64,000 nt of DNA from an uncultured Planctomycetota bacterium (GCA_963845755.1 CAWJTV010000011.1:960001-1024000); one strand, 5' to 3'; shown: positions 2,929 through 40,843, numbered from the stretch's first letter. Translations and numbers: made by a program. The notes: a model not told the origin generated them from the letters alone.

Positions 2929-4029
2929 ATGAACACCCAGGACATGACCATGATCCTACAGATTGGGCTGTCCGTTATTGCCTCGCTGGCGCTGTCGCTT
3001 CAGGGGATGGTCCAGAACGGCCCTCTGATTGGAATTGACTGCAACTACACCCTGGACATGGCGAAGCGTAACAAAGCGTGGAAAGATCGGTTTGAACTCG
3101 TTGACCCATTCGAGCTGTTCGCAAAGAACGGATGCCGGAACGCGCGCATCCGCTTGTGGGTCGGTGACGATGGGATCAATCGTCTGCGATACGCCACCGA
3201 GACTGCCCGTCGTGCGAAGCAGGCCGGTCTCAAACCGTACCTTGTCGTTTTTCTGAGCGACGAGTGGGCGGACTTTGTAAAACAACCAGCGCCGGTTGTT
3301 TGGAAGAAACTAACACCAGAGAAGAAATTGGCGGCGGTGGCAACATACACGGAAAACGTCGTCATCCACATGGCCAAGAATGGGGTTGACATCGACACTT
3401 TCGAGATCGGCAACGAGATTGATTTTGGAATCTGTGGAGAGTTCGAAGAAGAATGGCCGCGGCGCGTGAGTGTCGAATTCATGCGAACGCAAGTCTGGCC
3501 GCGCATGACGCCGATCCTCAAGGCGGCGCAGGCCGGTGTGCTCAAGGTCCAGCCCAAGGCGAAATTCATCTTGCACTTGTCGCAGTGGAATAACGTCAAC
3601 TATTGCATCTCCTTCTGGCAAGCGATGATCGCCGCTGGAGTGCAACTCGACTATCCAGGGCTCAGCTACTTTCCTTCTTCGGCGAAAGAGCCTATGCAGC
3701 GTCCGTTCAGTTTTCTGCAAGCGCAGGGTGGCAAGATTGTCGAGGCACTGCACAAGCCGGTACTAATCTGCGAGACCGGATATCCAGCCGCCGCCAACTT
3801 CGGCGGGCAGTTCGCAGAGTGGAATCTGCTGGCCGAAGGGTATCCCCTGAGCGACGATGGACAAGCCAAGTGGATCGCCGATCTGGCCGCGGTCATTCGC
3901 CATGATCGAGATTTCGCCGGCGTATTCTATTGGAGCCCGGAATGGTATGACGGCGGGCTTTGGGACGCATTCGCGCTATTCGATACGCACGGCGTCGCAC
4001 GGCCGGGAGTGCGATCGTTGACTCCCTAA
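2929..4029 (+). CDS. glycoside hydrolase family 53 (arabinogalactan endo-beta-1,4-galactanase-like), secreted
   Basis: RIRLWV, SDEWAD, IGNEI (acid/base), ETGYP (nucleophile), GVFYWSPEW; N-terminal signal-like segment. Confidence 0.8.
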   Translation: MNTQDMTMILQIGLSVIASLALSLQGMVQNGPLIGIDCNYTLDMAKRNKAWKDRFELVDPFELFAKNGCRNARIRLWVGDDGINRLRYATETARRAKQAGLKPYLVVFLSDEWADFVKQPAPVVWKKLTPEKKLAAVATYTENVVIHMAKNGVDIDTFEIGNEIDFGICGEFEEEWPRRVSVEFMRTQVWPRMTPILKAAQAGVLKVQPKAKFILHLSQWNNVNYCISFWQAMIAAGVQLDYPGLSYFPSSAKEPMQRPFSFLQAQGGKIVEALHKPVLICETGYPAAANFGGQFAEWNLLAEGYPLSDDGQAKWIADLAAVIRHDRDFAGVFYWSPEWYDGGLWDAFALFDTHGVARPGVRSLTP

Positions 4030-4542
4030 CGCGCGTCGGTCTGATCGACGAATGGGTGCGCCGTGGCTAAGGTTTGTCTGGTCTTGTCGGGAGTGCCCCG
4101 ACCCCGCTGGAAGAAGGCGGGTCAAACGTTCCGCTGACCTTCAACCGAAAGGATCGAGGGGACAACAGCATGCGGAAGAAGCGACGTGAGGCCCAGCGTC
4201 AAAGGGCCGAGAGACGTTCGCAAGTTAGGCCACGCATGGGTAAGGCTGGATTGCTTGAACTCCAGTCCCAGTGGGTGTGCTCGATCACCGCCGGGAATGA
4301 CGCTGAAACCCGGATTCCTGTCTCACGGGGGCATGCCATTCACCTCCGTGATCTTCCGGCAGGACACACCCTGCAATGAGCAGGGGCAAGGGATGAACGG
4401 AGGCCCTCAACGTGGACCGGACCTGACCGACAACCACGGGATCGCCTAACGGCAGCAATGCCCAAGGCGACAGAGTCCCCGTAGTAGGCATCGGCCCAAG
4501 GGGGACAGGACACAGGGCTTCACCAAGAACGGGGTGACTCGG

Positions 4543-5045
4543 ATGAGTCATTCAGCCCTACTCAGGCTTGAAGCACTGCGGAAGTGCAACACGGACCTCA
4601 ACTGGGTCAACGCGGATCTGTATCGACTCCTCTACAAGACGGATCTCTACATCGTCGCGTATGAGAAAATCAAATCCGCTCCCGGGAACTTGACTCCTGG
4701 CACCGACGGGATGACTCTCGATGGGTTCTCCATGGATGCCATCGACGACATCGTGGCGACCCTGCGAGACGAGGGTTTCCAATTCAAGCCTTCGCGGCGG
4801 GAATACATTCCCAAGGCAAATGGCAAGATGCGGCCTCTCGGCATCTCATCCCCAAGGGACAAGATCGTCCAAGAGGTCATCCATGTGATCCTCGAAGCGA
4901 TCTACGACAGTCCGAAAGGGCCTACCTTTAGCGACTGTAGCCATGGTTTTCGGCCTGGTCGAGGGACTCACACGGCCCTGCATGAGTTCAGGACCAAGTG
5001 GTCTGGTGTGACGTGGATCATCGAAGGGGATATAAAATCCTGCTT
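4543..5045 (+). CDS. ltrA: intron-encoded RT/maturase, 5' part (RT0 to the start of RT3), interrupted
   Basis: AYEKIKSAPGNLTPGTDG, RREYIPKANGKMRPLGISSPRDKIVQE, SHGFRPGRGTHTAL, WIIEGDIKSC then a break. Confidence 0.9.
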
Positions 5046-5068
5046 GGATCGGGCATCTTGATACCCTC

Positions 5069-7114
5069 CTAAAAACGTAAGTTGTTGAGATCTCCTGCCC
5101 GCAGTTGCCGGAACCGGGCCAGGGTCTCGGGAGTGTCGGGAAACAGGTAAGTCCTTCTCTCGAAATTGATGTCAATTTGAATTGTTCCATTGTGGATTCG
5201 ATCATAGATCCAGTGTCGTGGGATATTCAGCTTCATGGCCACCTGTGGGACTGTCAAGAAGCCGGGGATCTGGCGTGGGTGCGATTGATGGCGGTCGCGC
5301 ATCAGACCGTGGCTCAGGCGAAGGAGCTGAACCGTGCTGGGCAGAACGGTTCGGCCCCTGGGCGAACGGAAGCCATCTTGGGTCAACTGGCCGGCGATCT
5401 CCTCATCGGTCTTCCCTTCCCGCGCCAGCCGCAGGATCGTGTCCTCCATCTCTCGGCTGCCTGAGAGTCGGGCCAAGGCGCCCACCGTGACTGCGAGGTC
5501 GGCCTCCGACACGTCACCCCCCTTCCAGACGACGCGACAGTGGACCGTGTCCGGGACCCTCCGATCAACGACGACCTTGTCGATCAGGCATCGCAATAGC
5601 GCCTTCTTCTGCTCCTGTGAGAAGCGGTTGGCCTCCCACCATTCCGGGATCGTCCGCCCGGCGTCACTCAGCGCCTGGCGTGTCGCGCTGTCGAGTCGAG
5701 CCCAGGTCGCTGGCTGCGGCTCTTCTCGTGCCCGCGCCTCTTCGGCCTGCTTGAGTTCCCGTAAGGCGATCTCCCAACGCTTCTCGAGTTCCGCCGTCAC
5801 CAGCCGGTTGTCTGGATCGGACTTCTGGAACTGGCGTTCGGCCAGTCGCGCCTGGTAACGAAGTCGTTCCAACTCTTGCTGCCGTGCCCGATGGATCTGT
5901 TCGTGTTCCTCCGAGAGAGACCCCAGGACGCGCTCGTAGATGTCGAGCTCCGCAGGCGCCAAGGCGGCGAAGAAGACTTGCACGACATGGTCGTCGATCG
6001 GGTCCGCGGGGAGGTACTGGCAAACCGGGACCTGATGTTGTTGGCGCAAATAATTGCAGATATAGTGAGTTTTCGGTTTGTACTGCACGACCATCTGGTG
6101 GCCGCACTCGCCGCAGTAGACAATGCCGTGCAACAAGGCTTTTCCCGGCCGGGGAACGCCTCGGGTCCGATTGCGATCATACTCGCTGTAATTGTCGCGG
6201 ATCATGGCCTGGATTTTCTCATAAGTGGCCCAGTCGATGTAGGCCGGATACTTGTCCGGAATGCGGATTCGCCACCCGGCCATCGGCTGGAGTTTCTGCA
6301 CGGCCGGCTGGTTGGGACCGGTTCGGACCGAGCGGGTGCGCCCGTAGACAAATGCGCCCGCGTAGGCGGGATTCTTCAGGGTCGAGCCCAGACCGGCGAC
6401 CGAGGGCCTCTTCCAGGCGACGTCGCCGAAGGAGTCGCGTCGAGGAATGAGCAAGTTTCGCTCTTTGAAGTACCGGACGACTTTGGCAATGGACCGCAGG
6501 CGGAGGAACGTGGCGAAGACCAGATCGATGCGTCCCTGGACCTCGCGATCCGGATGCTTGGTGACGCGTCCCAGCGGATCACGGATGAGGCCGGTCGGCA
6601 GAGTCAGTGCCAGTTCCCCGCGTTGGGCCTTCTTGAGCACGCCATCGATCAGCCGACCCCGGAGGGTATGGAGCTCCAGCTCGGAGATCTGGCCTTTGAG
6701 CCCGAGCAGAAGGCGACCGTTGGGAGTGGAGGGATCGTAGATCCCATCGCGGTCGCCGATGAGGCAATGACGGTAGCCGCAAAGATCGAGCAGTTGATAC
6801 CACTCGGTGCAGTTTCGTGACAGACGGGTGACATCGTAGGAGAAGATGATGCCGACCTGGCCGAGTGTGACCCGAGTGATGAGTTCCTTCAACCCCTCGC
6901 GTCCCACGACGGTGCTGCCGGTCTTTCCCAGGTCGGCATCGATGATCTCGACGTCCTGGGGATCCCAGCCGCACTCACAGGCGCGTTGCCTGAGATCGTA
7001 CTGGAGCCGTTGGCTCTCCAGATTGTTCAGGACCTGATGAGGGCTGGACTGTCGGATGTAGATCAGGGCCTGGCGGCCCCGGTGGAAAGCCGTTACGAGT
7101 TCTGAGATATTCAT
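5069..7114 (-). CDS. large serine recombinase (resolvase + recombinase + zinc-ribbon + coiled coil), 681 aa, intact
   Basis: YIRQSS catalytic motif, DVTRLSRN, LKNPAYAG, LLHGIVYCGECG...YIC...C zinc ribbon. Confidence 0.93.
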   Translation of the reverse strand: MNISELVTAFHRGRQALIYIRQSSPHQVLNNLESQRLQYDLRQRACECGWDPQDVEIIDADLGKTGSTVVGREGLKELITRVTLGQVGIIFSYDVTRLSRNCTEWYQLLDLCGYRHCLIGDRDGIYDPSTPNGRLLLGLKGQISELELHTLRGRLIDGVLKKAQRGELALTLPTGLIRDPLGRVTKHPDREVQGRIDLVFATFLRLRSIAKVVRYFKERNLLIPRRDSFGDVAWKRPSVAGLGSTLKNPAYAGAFVYGRTRSVRTGPNQPAVQKLQPMAGWRIRIPDKYPAYIDWATYEKIQAMIRDNYSEYDRNRTRGVPRPGKALLHGIVYCGECGHQMVVQYKPKTHYICNYLRQQHQVPVCQYLPADPIDDHVVQVFFAALAPAELDIYERVLGSLSEEHEQIHRARQQELERLRYQARLAERQFQKSDPDNRLVTAELEKRWEIALRELKQAEEARAREEPQPATWARLDSATRQALSDAGRTIPEWWEANRFSQEQKKALLRCLIDKVVVDRRVPDTVHCRVVWKGGDVSEADLAVTVGALARLSGSREMEDTILRLAREGKTDEEIAGQLTQDGFRSPRGRTVLPSTVQLLRLSHGLMRDRHQSHPRQIPGFLTVPQVAMKLNIPRHWIYDRIHNGTIQIDINFERRTYLFPDTPETLARFRQLRAGDLNNLRF

Positions 7115-7162
7115 GAATAACCTCCGCGCAGATCGCTGAGATGTCGTCGATGGCTTGCTGTT

Positions 7163-7438
7163 TCACGGTCTTGGGGAGCTTCGACCAGACGTCTTGGGGC
7201 AGGGACACGGCGTTTCATCCTCCTGGATCAGGGAAAGGAGCTCACGGATGGCGTCCGGAGTCCATTTTGTCCCGGGAAGGGTGATCTGGCTTACCATCGC
7301 GCTGGTCGAGGCGACGGGGATGCGGAGCTGCATCCCGTCGCGATAGGCGACGAGTACATGGCCGGAGCCGTGGGGTGGTCGGGAGATCGAGACGACGGCA
7401 AAACGCCGGCGGAAGAGGGGGTGAGTCGGATCCGTCAC
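7163..7438 (-). CDS. small protein at the head of the recombinase element (DUF5372/Y4bD-like)
   Basis: VTDPTHPLFRRRF...LRIPVAST motif typical of ORFs upstream of this recombinase class; the frame stays open to the element end at 7500. Confidence 0.65.
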   Translation of the reverse strand: MTDPTHPLFRRRFAVVSISRPPHGSGHVLVAYRDGMQLRIPVASTSAMVSQITLPGTKWTPDAIRELLSLIQEDETPCPCPKTSGRSSPRP

Positions 7439-7500
7439 CTCAATCTCTTCGGGAAGGGATTGAGGCGGGTTGTGGAACGGGGCATCATGAAAGGGTCTCG

Positions 7501-8838
7501 TTCGACGAGATCGATCACCACGTCCTGGTTTCCCTGATCCGGAAGAGGATCTCGGACGAACGCTTCATCGGCCTGATCTGGAAAGCACTCCGGGCAGGCT
7601 ACCTATGGAGGAAGGAACCGGGGGCCTCGTTTATCGGGACCCCGCAGGGGAGCGTGGCCAGCCCTATCCTCGCCAACATCTACCTGCACGAACTCGACCT
7701 CTTCGTCGAGGGACTACAGCAGAAGTACGAGAAGGGCAGCAAGCGGAAGGACAGCCCCGAGTATCACCGGATCAACTATCGCAGGCAGCGAGCGTTGAAA
7801 CGGTCAGGTGGGATCATGACGCCGGAGATTCGCGCTTTGACGAAACAGATGCGATCTCTCCCGTCGATGGACACGTTTGACCCTGGCTTCGTCAGAGTCA
7901 AATACATCAGATATGCAGACGATTGGATCGTCGGCGTCACGGGGCCGAGGTCCCTGGCCGAACAGATCAAGGACGAGATTCAGGCGTTCCTATGGGACAG
8001 GCTGAAACTGCAACTCAGCCAGGAAAAGACGGTCGTCACTCACGCCAAGACCGAGGAGGCCTTCTTTCTCGGGACGCGGCTTCAGGTGGGGGCCGTCAAC
8101 CCACAGCCCAAGGTTACCCACTGCCACAACCAACGGCGGCACTACCGGCGCCGGTGTACGGGGTGGAGCCCGCTGATGCGAGCGCCGATCAGGAAACTGG
8201 TCAAGCGTCTTCACCAGAAGGGCTTCTGTGACGGTGAGGGCATCGCCCGATCCAAGACAGCGTGGGTCTGCCTGGAGGTGAAGCACATCATCGAACTGTT
8301 CAACAGCACCAATTGGGGGCTGTTGAACTACTACAGGTTTGCTGACAACTTCGCCTCCATGAGCCGTATCCAGTACATCCTGCATTTGTCACTTGCGAAG
8401 ACCTTAGCCCACAAGTTGCAGAAGCCCGTTAAGCAGCTCCTCTGCGAACACGGACGCACTCTGCAATTCAACTGGAAAGACGGCGAGGGGAAGGAACGGA
8501 ACACCTTCTTCAAAGCCAACTCCGACTGGACCCGGAACCCCACGGCATTTCTAACGGGAAGAGATCAAACCGACCCACTGGAGATGCACGTCCGATTCCG
8601 GACAAGGTCCCGCCTGGACCACCCATGCATCATCTGCGAAACAACGGTCGGGGTGCAGATGCACCACGTCCGTCACATCCGAAAGATGGAGGGCAAACCT
8701 GTCGGTGGGTTTGCCTGGCTGATGCGACTCCAGAACCGGAAGCAAGTGCCCGTCTGCCGAGAGTGCCACCGTAAGATCCACCGAGGAGAATATGATGGCC
8801 TCCGACTGGCGGACCTGGCATACCGGGTTGGACCGTGA
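7501..8838 (+). CDS. ltrA: intron-encoded RT/maturase/HNH endonuclease, 3' part
   Basis: FDEIDH, GTPQGSVASPILANIYLHELD, YIRYADDW, domain X (GLLNYY), HNH (CIIC...MHHVRH...VCRECHRKIH). Joined with the 5' part gives 612 aa. Confidence 0.92.
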   Translation, partial: FDEIDHHVLVSLIRKRISDERFIGLIWKALRAGYLWRKEPGASFIGTPQGSVASPILANIYLHELDLFVEGLQQKYEKGSKRKDSPEYHRINYRRQRALKRSGGIMTPEIRALTKQMRSLPSMDTFDPGFVRVKYIRYADDWIVGVTGPRSLAEQIKDEIQAFLWDRLKLQLSQEKTVVTHAKTEEAFFLGTRLQVGAVNPQPKVTHCHNQRRHYRRRCTGWSPLMRAPIRKLVKRLHQKGFCDGEGIARSKTAWVCLEVKHIIELFNSTNWGLLNYYRFADNFASMSRIQYILHLSLAKTLAHKLQKPVKQLLCEHGRTLQFNWKDGEGKERNTFFKANSDWTRNPTAFLTGRDQTDPLEMHVRFRTRSRLDHPCIICETTVGVQMHHVRHIRKMEGKPVGGFAWLMRLQNRKQVPVCRECHRKIHRGEYDGLRLADLAYRVGP

Positions 8839-8998
8839 CACAAATGTAGATCCTGTGTCTGGAGAGCCGGATGCACGAAAACGTGCCTGTCCGGTTCGGG
8901 AGGGGGCGGTTGGATTCCCTTGAGATCAAGGGGCTGGCCGCCTACCTCATCATTAGCTTAGTCGAAAACCCTGGTCATTTAATGAGTTACGCCAAAAG

Positions 8999-9284
8999 GT
9001 CGCCGTTCGCGGGGCGTAACAGATGGGATGAGGCGACTTTGATCACCGGTTCCGCCTCGGGCACGAGGGAGGGGATCGCATGGCCATCGCGATCAGCTCG
9101 GAAGCACGACGCCAGGTAGTCCAGGACGTTGAGCCCTTGCTGCCGACACCAGGTCACCAGGGTCAGCATCCGCTCCACGAAGGTAGGACGGTGTCCCAGA
9201 GTCGTCCAGGCAGAGTAGGCTGCGGGTTCATGCTGCAGATATTACGAAATTACCGTACAAGGAGTTCGGACCGTGAACGGCTAC
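8999..9284 (-). mobile_element. internally deleted IS66-family element (286 bp)
   Basis: TIRs GTCGCCGTTCGCGG (8999-9012) and CCGTGAACGGCTAC (9271-9284), 12/14 match. Transposase N-terminus MNPQPTLPGRLWDTV (ATG 9231) abuts the C-terminus FVERMLTLVTWCRQQGLNVLDYL...IPSLVP. Confidence 0.75.
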
Positions 9285-9288
9285 GGCC

Positions 9289-10294
9289 ATGGCCCAGTTC
9301 ACGCGGGCGATGGAATTCTTGAACCGGTTCGCGCCGAATTACCCGTCGCGAACCACGGTCCTGGCGGACTACGAATACACTTACCGTCAGCTCGGCCAGG
9401 CGTGTCTGATGTCCGGCTGGACGGCGGGGGCCGAGTACAGCCGGAAGGCCCTGGAATCGGCCTGGGCCTTCGTCGCGGCCGAGCCGGAGAACCTCTGGCT
9501 CCGCAAGAAACTGGCCATCGACTACGACCAGCTCGGCGCCGCGCGATTGCTCCTCGGCGACCTCGACGGCGCGGAGGCGGTTGCTGTATCAGAAATGCCT
9601 GGCCACCAGCGAGACGTTCGCCGACGCCGATCCCGGCTCGGTGCAGAAGCAGGGGGATGTCCTGGAGACCCTGGAAGCCCTCACCGATAATGCCGAGCGT
9701 GCCGAGCAGTTCCCGGAATCGCTCGAGTGGATCAAGCGGACGTTGCACTGGCTCGACCGGCTCGACCGCGAAAAACGCCTAGGGCGCGACGTTCTGGAGC
9801 CGTCGCGGTTGATCGCCATGGGACGGCAGGCGCTCTACCAGCCCGCCATGGGTGGCCTCGGGCTGGATTCCACGACGGCCCCGGCCCCGGATCTACCGCC
9901 CCTCCTGCAAGACTGGTGGAAGCTCCTGCGGGGCCTGGGACTGGCCCGGCGCGGCCGGCACGCCCAGGCCGCCGCCGAGGTCCGTGACGTGCTGAGCCGC
10001 GACGCCCAGAACCCGATCAAGGCGATCCGGGTCGGCCGGGTTTTCGCCCGCTGCGCCGAGGCCGTCGCGCTGGGTAAGGCGGACACGGCACTGACTGCCG
10101 AGGAACGCACGCTTCGACAAGATTACATCGACTCGGCTCTCGATGCGGTCTGGCGGACGATCCGGCTCTCGCCGGATACCACCGCCGACACATTCGCCGA
10201 GCCCGATTACGACCTCCTGTGGCGCCGCGGCGACCTGGCGACCGTCGCCCGCGAGCTGAGCCAGGAGGCGAGCCGGAAGGCCCCGGCGCCGTGA
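9289..10294 (+). pseudogene. C-terminal TPR-like fragment, probably of a Ser/Thr kinase-type protein; 5'-truncated at the IS66 remnant and frameshifted
   Basis: TPR-like helices in two frames (9289-9690, 9581-10294); GLGLARRGRHAQA...YIDSALDAV...EPDYDLL tail resembles the kinase tails at 36588 and 56539. Confidence 0.55.
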
Positions 10295-40235: not shown

Positions 40236-40648
40236 CCTCTTATCCGCGCCGGACAGGAACCGGGACCGGAAAACCGGAATTGAGATCGGCGGACGCTCTC
40301 GGGTTCTCGGAGGGCCCTCTCGGCATCATGCATGGAGTTCAATGTGGTGACGTCGAGACCGACAGTACAGTACAGCGTGACGCAGCTCGTTGCATCGCAG
40401 CGGCAGGCGGTCTGGCTTGGGCACCGGATGCACGCAGGTCGCGGTCGCGCGGAGAAGCGTGCAGGACGGGGCTTACAATCGTCCTAGCGGGTCGAGTTGC
40501 GCGTCGGTCGGATCGACGAATGGCACTAGCTTAAGCGTAACTCATTTTCAGAAAGAAAGTTGTATCGTGATGGTTTTCCCGTCGATGGTGCTCAGGATGT
40601 TATGAGGCTGGGTCCATGTGGCTTGATTTGAGGCTATATTCTCTATCA

Positions 40649-40843
40649 GTACGCGTTCACACCTCGGTCAACAATTGTCCGAGATTATCACTCGTTCCCA
40701 CGCTCGGCGTGGGAACGAGTCATCGCGTTCTGACGGGGTAATCGGCGGTTTCGATGCCGAATGTCACATAATCTGACATTGATATTTTCTGATGCCTGAA
40801 AACCAGACATCTTACAACTGTCAACCAGGGTGTGAACGGGTAC
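40649..40843. mobile_element. MITE (195 bp) with IS66-like GTAC..GTTCAC ends and an internal REP-like hairpin
   Basis: 30-bp imperfect TIRs (24/30) at 40649-40678 and 40814-40843; perfect 14-bp stem ACTCGTTCCCACGC/GCGTGGGAACGAGT at 40690-40720. Confidence 0.7.

Follow-up and report, generated by a model that had tools for sequence, protein, structure and literature searches.

A group II intron predicted to home at the seam between an IS4-family end and a REP-like hairpin, with a serine-recombinase element nested in its reverse transcriptase gene

Introduction

We analysed a stretch of 64,000 nt (the window) from the genome of an uncultured Planctomycetota bacterium (GCA_963845755.1), which is 14.27 Mb long and described as a large soil-bacterium genome. 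Between positions 4056 and 8950, the window holds a group II intron whose guide sequences match two different repeats: the tip of an insertion sequence (IS) of the IS4 family, and the loop of a repetitive extragenic palindromic (REP)-like hairpin that flanks it. The intron's reverse transcriptase (RT) gene is itself split by a 2457-bp element that encodes a large serine recombinase. We lean towards reading the locus as a four-tier stack of parasites, in which every tier provides the landing site for the one above it. Both an intron that reads such a seam and a recombinase element specific for RT codons seem to be undescribed, and the recombinase element would, in at least 10 bacterial phyla or classes, be a dedicated hyperparasite of group II introns, or their hitch-hiker.

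The stack would be assembled as follows. [quoted passage not shown] A group IIA-like intron would then retrohome 6 nt inside the IS end, presumably by reverse splicing, with its exon-binding site 1 (EBS1) and delta nucleotides pairing with the IS tip GAATGG|CA, and its EBS2 pairing with the adjacent duplicated loop (ATCGA/TGATCGA). Upstream, the intron protein probably recognises the REP arm, and downstream the IS repeat. Insertion of the intron probably disables the IS end, since it splits the inverted repeat, and splicing is unable to mend a signal that acts at the DNA level. Finally, the serine-recombinase element would have entered the RT gene by site-specific recombination at a TT core. 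With its RT gene split, the window copy would therefore have to rely, by trans-complementation, on the protein from three uninterrupted copies of the intron.

Intron boundaries, guide sequences and protein

All coordinates below are those of the window, and features lie on the plus strand unless the minus strand is named. The 5′ flank of the intron reads CGCGCGTCGGTCTGATCGAC (4030-4049) followed by GAATGG (4050-4055), and the intron then starts at 4056 with GTGCG, a GUGCG 5′ end. Its 3′ end, ...CCTCAT, falls at 8950, with CATTAGCTTAG adjoining from 8951. Domains V and VI occupy 8862-8950, where the Rfam model RF00029 matches with 62 bits (E 8.7e-10) against a gathering score of 40. The original prediction had removed the intron and arrived at the same flanks and the same GAATGG junction, and a reading of the sequence confirms both. 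The boundaries at 4056 and 8950 are confirmed independently by a soil-metagenome DNA contig (X1 record 1) that lacks the whole 4.9-kb intron: it covers 3661-4054 at 97.7% identity, resumes at 8963-9068 and has 13 letters, readable as IS end, where 13 are expected between 4054 and 8963. Since this intron-less contig keeps both the IS end and the IS66 fragment described below, both were in place before the intron arrived.

The intron spans 4.9 kb in the window. The intron proper, however, measures 2438 bp; the longer span arises because the 2457-bp recombinase element, overlooked at first, splits the RT open reading frame (ORF). A BLAST search of the whole genome with the two halves of the intron recovered uninterrupted 2438-bp copies, one on C7 and two on C34.

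The intron contains two segments that complement its 5′ exon. The nonamer ATGCCATTC at 4333-4341, made up of delta (ATG) and EBS1 (CCATTC), is a perfect reverse complement to GAATGG|CAT, that is, to intron-binding site 1 (IBS1; 4050-4055), which forms the first 6 nt of the IS4-type terminal inverted repeat, and to delta′ (8951-8953). Folding puts it into a hairpin of 9 bp, in whose 11-nt loop it has a mean probability of being unpaired of 0.90, and the G on the 5′ side of EBS1 is able to pair with the +1 C, which makes it a candidate for the delta-delta′ pair that IIA introns have in place of EBS3-IBS3. The predicted 9-nt pairing of EBS1 and delta is thus exact in the window copy, but its third delta pair is absent elsewhere: the +3 T of delta′ is peculiar to the window copy, and the other six copies read CAC and pair at 8 of 9 positions. 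As also predicted, the heptamer TCGATCA is the exact complement of TGATCGA (IBS2; 4042-4048); we locate this EBS2 at 4281-4287, and a single unpaired C at 4049 (position -7) separates IBS2 from IBS1. The fold of the first 490 nt of the intron is no better than those of shuffled sequences (z -1.2).

The ORF of the intron-encoded protein is cut by the insertion into an N-terminal part, which runs to ...GDIKSC (4534-5045), and a C-terminal part, which begins with FDEIDH... and continues into the maturase and HNH domains (7501-8838). An intact version, from copy L002, is 615 aa long and has RVT_1, Intron_maturas2 and AI2M-like HNH domains. Its alignment with LtrA, the protein of the group IIA intron Ll.LtrB, is full-length (E 3.5e-96), whereas the next-best match in PDB, a 'maturase reverse transcriptase', covers the RT part only (E 9e-32); the score with TIGR04416 is 252 bits, under the 300-bit cut-off. 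A GUGYG 5′ end, domains V and VI, an RT with a maturase, and EBS1-IBS1 and EBS2-IBS2 complements of 6 and 7 nt together identify a group II intron, and the similarity of its protein, taken by itself, suggests that this intron is IIA-like.

ORF-less mini-derivatives of the intron, ~0.8 kb long and with domain IV deleted, occur in a sister genome (L008; G001 C15). Contigs from a soil metatranscriptome (X15) also show ORF-less derivatives, with joints from 4581 or 4590 to 8848.

Intron copies and their shared context

BLAST found 13 5′ junctions of the intron in the host genome, and all 13 are preceded by an arm of the [CT]TCGG type, a loop of 10-11 nt ending in AC, and GAATGG; IBS1 deviates in two of them, once to GATTGG and once to GAATGC. 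These 13 5′ ends represent eight loci at 99.5-100% identity to the window copy together with older variants and fragments, and among the eight near-identical loci one is internally deleted, one is cut by a contig end and one is without its 5′ end. A pattern search added a 14th 5′ stub. On the other side, all seven 3′ junctions continue as CA[CT][TG]AGCTT. The seven 3′ ends are among the 24 RF00029 matches in the genome (21 of them above cut-off), and the 3′ flanks of the other intron families in this genome are unrelated and varied.

The intron is present in 5 of 121 genomes of the bacterial family, the host genome included. In the four related genomes, which belong to three further genera, every one of the five junctions (two in G001 and one each in G021, G067 and G106) is preceded by an arm, then a loop, then G[AC]ATGG. 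In G106 and G067, both from other genera, the seam is the same and all seven IBS2-EBS2 positions pair; in the ORF-less copy of G001, the 3′ exon is a MITE end. The original prediction would have been refuted by copies in unrelated contexts, and an alignment of the flanks turned up no such context at any of the 5′ junctions (13 of 13), the 3′ junctions (seven of seven) or the junctions in related genomes (five of five).

The 3′ exons diverge between sites beyond ~16-24 nt, as do the MITE interiors downstream, while the introns themselves are 99.5-100% identical. The intron thus moved independently rather than being carried along, and the high identity of its copies suggests that this mobility is recent.

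In one near-identical copy (L005; C36:46510-49020), the maturase region is split by a ~2.5-kb IS21-like element with inverted ends and a 7-bp duplication, ACTACAG; we take its ORFs to be IstA and IstB. At least two other multi-copy intron families inhabit the genome, with a cluster of four on C47:6645-18050.

The REP-like hairpin and the IS4-family element

The repeat that flanks the intron upstream is a real REP-like hairpin, present also without the IS. Its arms read ..GCGC[GT]TCG and CGAAGCGC.., and they enclose a loop of 11-12 nt of the form GT..AC. Dozens of arm-loop-arm copies were observed in the genome, and loop strings that accompany the IS also occur without it, between the arms GC[GT]TCG and CGAAGC. 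For example, the loop GTCCGACGACAC continues as CGA.. in at least 28 of its 50 occurrences and as GAATGG in eight. A strict regular expression for empty REPs returned 38 sites, which is an undercount and not a census. At the window locus, the left arm CGCGCGTCG and the loop GTCTGATCGAC occupy 4030-4049, and this arm and loop recur elsewhere as an empty hairpin. IBS2 had been assigned to the REP arm; it lies instead within the loop, which is the target-site duplication of the IS.

The downstream half of the site belongs to a transposon. The 16-nt motif GAATGGCACTAGCTTA, expected 0.01 times per window, has 14 exact occurrences in the genome, often as inverted pairs ~229 bp apart, which are the MITEs. 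It also forms the inverted ends of one 1830-bp element (C47:276274-278103), whose 504-aa ORF has a DDE_Tnp_1 domain and scores 212.7 bits with the IS4 equivalog model NF033592 (cut-off 115). The other outcome that would have refuted the original prediction, a motif that terminates no IS, is therefore not seen either, and its suggestion that the motif resembles an IS4-type terminal repeat is borne out: GAATGGCACTAGCTTA serves an IS4-family element as its terminal inverted repeat, with the family set by the transposase model. An IS4-type DDE transposase, terminal inverted repeats and a target-site duplication are all found in this element. The duplication takes the form of a perfect 12-bp direct repeat of the REP loop around five of eight REP-flanked pairs, the full-length IS included.

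On C20, the flanks of a related MITE are inverted and differ in sequence from those above. There is also a second repeat family, which starts with GAATGGCATTAAGTTAAG and has seven copies (C5:535436, C5:820984, C12:183711, C25:139863, C11:690397, C25:15402 and C43:95246); these share the intron's IBS1 and delta′ but hold no intron, they are without a REP, and the flanks of six of the seven end in CCC.

A composite target at the IS/REP seam

The two halves of the intron's target thus come from different repeats: the IS repeat supplies IBS1 and delta′ as its first 6 + 2 nt, and the duplicated REP loop, a variable sequence that differs among sites, supplies IBS2. This variation allows occupied and unoccupied sites to be compared. 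At positions -12 to -8, as IBS2 is numbered in targets of the Ll.LtrB type, the sequence ATCGA is found in 7 of 7 near-identical copies that retain a 5′ flank and in 3 of the 21 REP-flanked IS ends that are unoccupied (Fisher p = 1e-4; Mann-Whitney p 9e-5). IBS2 reads TGATCGA in four of these seven copies, GGATCGA in two and TAATCGA in one, and the sequences further upstream are mutually unrelated.

A variant of the intron on C6 offers a second line of evidence. It is 94% identical to the window copy, and it has five changes within 11 nt around EBS2 against 6% overall, which makes this the most variable spot between variants. The loop at its own site also differs, and the new CCGAC of the variant pairs at all five positions, with a 1-nt shift, with GTCGG in that loop. 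A second, putative IS type, with GAATGGCAT ends and the start GAATGGCATTAAGTTA, is present in seven copies without a REP flank, and none of these contains an intron.

With the target divided in this way, a full site would exist only at those IS/REP seams whose loop matches EBS2. From the sequence comparisons, we consider it highly probable that the intron homes at such seams, and the shared contexts and the IBS2 bias together support the earlier proposal that it parasitises IS/REP junctions. This composite target makes a prediction: homing should be more frequent at an IS end with the loop TGATCGAC than at one with the loop GTCCGACGACAC. The window itself contains one unoccupied predicted target at 40492-40651, where a REP arm and the loop GTCGGATCGAC are followed by GAATGGCACTAGCTTAAGCGTAAC, a MITE end. 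The MITE end at this site is an intact IS4-type end.

A serine-recombinase element nested in the RT gene

The element that splits the intron ORF lies on the minus strand at 5044-7500, as determined by comparing its junctions with an intact copy of the intron. It encodes a large serine recombinase of 681 aa (5069-7114, minus strand), in which the Pfam domains Resolvase, Recombinase and Zn_ribbon_recom all score above their cut-offs, and, 5′ of the recombinase gene, a 91-aa ORF without a Pfam match (7163-7438, minus strand). The left and right attachment sites read TGC-TT-GGATC.. (attL) and ..CTCG-TT-CGAC (attR), and the intact site reads TGC TTC GAC. The insertion falls at a TT core that belongs to the Phe codon in the C-F-D motif of the RT, and this TT is common to both junctions and the intact site. 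A relative with a DNA identity of 74% and a protein identity of 72% sits in a different group II RT at GDLSGY|FDAIPH.

A scan with one genome per species yielded 59 related loci (L031-L089), spread over Planctomycetota, Chloroflexota, Acetobacteraceae and other Alphaproteobacteria, Cyanobacteria, Desulfobacterales, Gemmatimonadota, Verrucomicrobia, Chlamydiae and others. Among the 45 loci with enough flanking sequence, 32 have an N-terminal RT part that ends at a ..D[IL]xx[CYF]F codon ~27 nt past the recombinase stop, on the opposite strand, and 26 have a C-terminal RT part that starts with D.I.H ~390 nt before the recombinase start, again on the opposite strand; both parts are found at 21 of 35 fully flanked loci. 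The profiles used for the RT flanks were built from flanks first found with the window protein, so that the seeds match by construction, and a Pfam scan served as an independent check: all 18 selected flank ORFs proved to be RVT_1 domains broken at profile position 78-81. The interrupted RTs are of two types, one with Intron_maturas2 and AI2M-HNH domains and the other with GIIM, HNH and RVT_N. These junctions point to site-specific integration at a TT core in the Phe-Asp codons of RT genes. In one metagenome-assembled genome (L075-L077 and L079), the same element ends occur in four different RT contexts, a pattern that favours repeated integration over hitch-hiking as the sole explanation.

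The 91-aa ORF recurs with 31-58% identity in 46 of the 59 loci (tblastn), mostly at the same position 5′ of the recombinase gene, and is a candidate accessory or directionality factor. A second short reading frame (6975-7208) overlaps the recombinase start and is conserved in 39 loci, perhaps through the overlap alone. No RT flanks were found beside the more distant recombinase homologues of the host genome, on C9, C20, C48 and C13.

Evaluation of alternative explanations

Several observations weigh against the stack as we have drawn it. In thermodynamic folding, EBS2 has a probability of being unpaired of 0.53, which falls short of a clear loop position. The ORF-less copy of G001 carries EBS2 TCGATCA beside the loop TGTCGTCGGAC, with three of seven pairs in register and five, wobbles included, after a 1-nt shift. 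The young copy at C34:529006 has a T>C change in EBS2, and the three unoccupied ends with a good IBS2 indicate that occupancy is unsaturated. Around three of the eight REP-flanked pairs there is no direct duplication (two have inverted flanks and one has differing flanks), which we attribute to recombination between copies. No exon-exon joint was found among the contigs of one soil metatranscriptome, a result that is uninformative on splicing at the window locus. With regard to the recombinase element, a second copy, 100% identical, lies at C26:91221-93677 in a non-RT site (..ATCTG-TT-CTACG..), and a profile search found an RT on neither side in 7 of 35 fully flanked relatives. Because the C26 copy is identical and stands at a non-RT site, the element must have been active recently and be able to use secondary sites. 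The C26 site has only TTC.ACG in common with the RT site.

How the intron chooses its sites could be explained in a simpler way, if it recognised the IS end alone, through IBS1, delta′ and the downstream repeat, as in RmInt1; the match between TCGATCA and the loop would then be a coincidence or reflect a shared ancestry of the sites. The invariance of IBS1 and of the 3′ exon suits this explanation, as do the G001 copy beside its non-matching loop and the failure of EBS2 to emerge clearly unpaired from the fold. We nevertheless think it improbable. Against it stand the IBS2 match in all seven young copies and only 3 of 21 unoccupied ends, the unrelated upstream flanks, the complete pairing in other genera (G106 and G067) and the rewritten EBS2 loop of the C6 variant, which matches its own site. 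The seven GAATGGCAT-ended IS copies, which offer the end without the REP flank, hold no intron.

Two further explanations would do away with either the homing or the seam. If the intron spread passively inside MITEs or duplicated segments instead of by retrohoming, the mobility of MITEs and the repeat-rich genome would provide the means, and the exchanged flanks of three of the eight MITE pairs do suggest recombination between copies. Yet introns 99.5-100% identical stand in MITE ends with differing interiors, an inverted repeat split 6 nt from its tip should block the transposase, and passive spread would not yield the IBS2 loop bias; we regard it as very improbable. Nor do we give much credit to the idea that the 'REP' is the outer part of a longer IS or MITE end, with the whole target inside one element, which of these explanations we rate lowest. 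Perfect inverted repeats around two of the eight pairs, and the C20 MITE with its inverted flanks, would agree with such an extended end. However, the direct 12-bp loop repeat at five of the eight pairs, full-length IS included, would not; many hairpins run from loop to right arm without any intervening IS sequence, and the loops vary between sites while the ends are constant. A composite target at the IS/REP seam thus remains the reading that we prefer.

Comparison with known systems

The closest precedent for an intron that targets an IS is RmInt1 of Sinorhizobium meliloti, which homes into ISRm2011-2, an insertion said to block the spread of the IS (PMC5894124). RmInt1 is placed among the group IIB introns (PMC3898094), and its protein is without an endonuclease (En) domain (PMC1802570). 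Like RmInt1, the window intron has its natural target in a multicopy insertion sequence, with most or all copies in one IS context. Unlike RmInt1, whose site is within the IS, it has an LtrA-like protein with an HNH domain and is inserted 6 nt inside the terminal repeat, with its IBS2 outside the IS.

IIA introns recognise their target through EBS1, EBS2 and delta, and it is the RT that reads both flanks (PMC3898094). The window intron resembles the IIA intron Ll.LtrB in the full-length alignment of its protein with LtrA, in the position of delta directly 5′ of EBS1, and in the single unpaired base between IBS2 and IBS1. Ll.LtrB homes into a conserved gene, whereas the window intron would home into a seam between two repeats, where no ORF is interrupted. 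A hairpin-forming repeat as 5′ exon is also reminiscent of the group IIC introns, which insert after hairpins such as terminators and attC sites. The window intron differs from these in its En domain, its LtrA-like protein, its sequence-matched EBS2 and its constant 3′ exon; in IIC introns, a DNA hairpin replaces IBS2 (PMC3898094).

Insertion of an IS into REP elements has a precedent in ISRm22, an IS4-family element with all of its copies in REP elements, and REP targeting has been reported for five IS families (PMC1525189). The system described here involves another host and another element, one dominated by MITE derivatives and with a defined insertion point and a defined 12-bp duplication of the loop; the available part of PMC1525189 mentions no intron linked to ISRm22. 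Introns that enter an IS and ISs that enter a REP are therefore both known, and what sets the present case apart is that the guides of one intron span an IS tip and a host-derived duplication.

The recombinase element shares with large serine recombinases (phage integrases and the XisF, TnpX and Ccr types) a three-domain protein, a core of 2 bp and, at its joined ends, arms that form inverted repeats. It differs from the elements of those recombinases in its size of only 2.46 kb, in its content of a recombinase and one small conserved ORF, and in its preference for one RT codon pair across phyla. With the XisF and Ccr models, the recombinase scores 92 bits, far below the cut-off of 375. We found no literature on a seam-targeting intron or on an RT-specific serine-recombinase element, in a search that left out most subscription journals, so that their absence is unproven; the part of PMC4853749 available to us mentions neither specificity.

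For intron biology, the proposed target would be a natural example of a single intron whose two RNA guide segments each read a different repeat. The homing site would be made by the transposition of another element and, without that transposition, would be gone. This arrangement can serve as a testable model for the ways in which retroelements restrain the harm they do to their host, and such an intron may police an IS by splitting its inverted repeat beyond repair by splicing. From the point of view of mobile-element ecology, REP, IS, intron and recombinase element would form a layered dependency, and young, identical copies in every layer make the order of events readable. The recombinase family is a candidate source of integrases with a short, defined attB in RT genes and a small partner ORF, and it could serve as a marker for locating group II introns.

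Genomic surroundings of the window copy

Upstream of the window copy and on the same strand is a gene for a GH53 glycosyl hydrolase (2929-4029; Pfam Glyco_hydro_53, E 4.1e-48), whose stop codon directly abuts the REP. A crude test of orientation between upstream gene and intron, based on GC content at third codon positions, gave a mixed and unreliable outcome, and the same-strand statement is limited to the window copy.

Downstream of the intron, ~47 nt of the IS4-type end are left (8951-8997), a decayed remnant beginning with CATTAGCTTAGTCG. A search 3′ of the window intron found neither a second IS4-type end nor a duplicate loop. The IS4-type element is truncated by a degenerate, internally deleted fragment of the IS66 family (8998-9290), which is 70-75% identical to more than 10 genomic copies, with the homology beginning at ~8998. 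One genomic copy of the IS66 type encodes pieces of an IS66 transposase (NF033517), and an IS66-type copy on C24 adjoins another group II RT gene.

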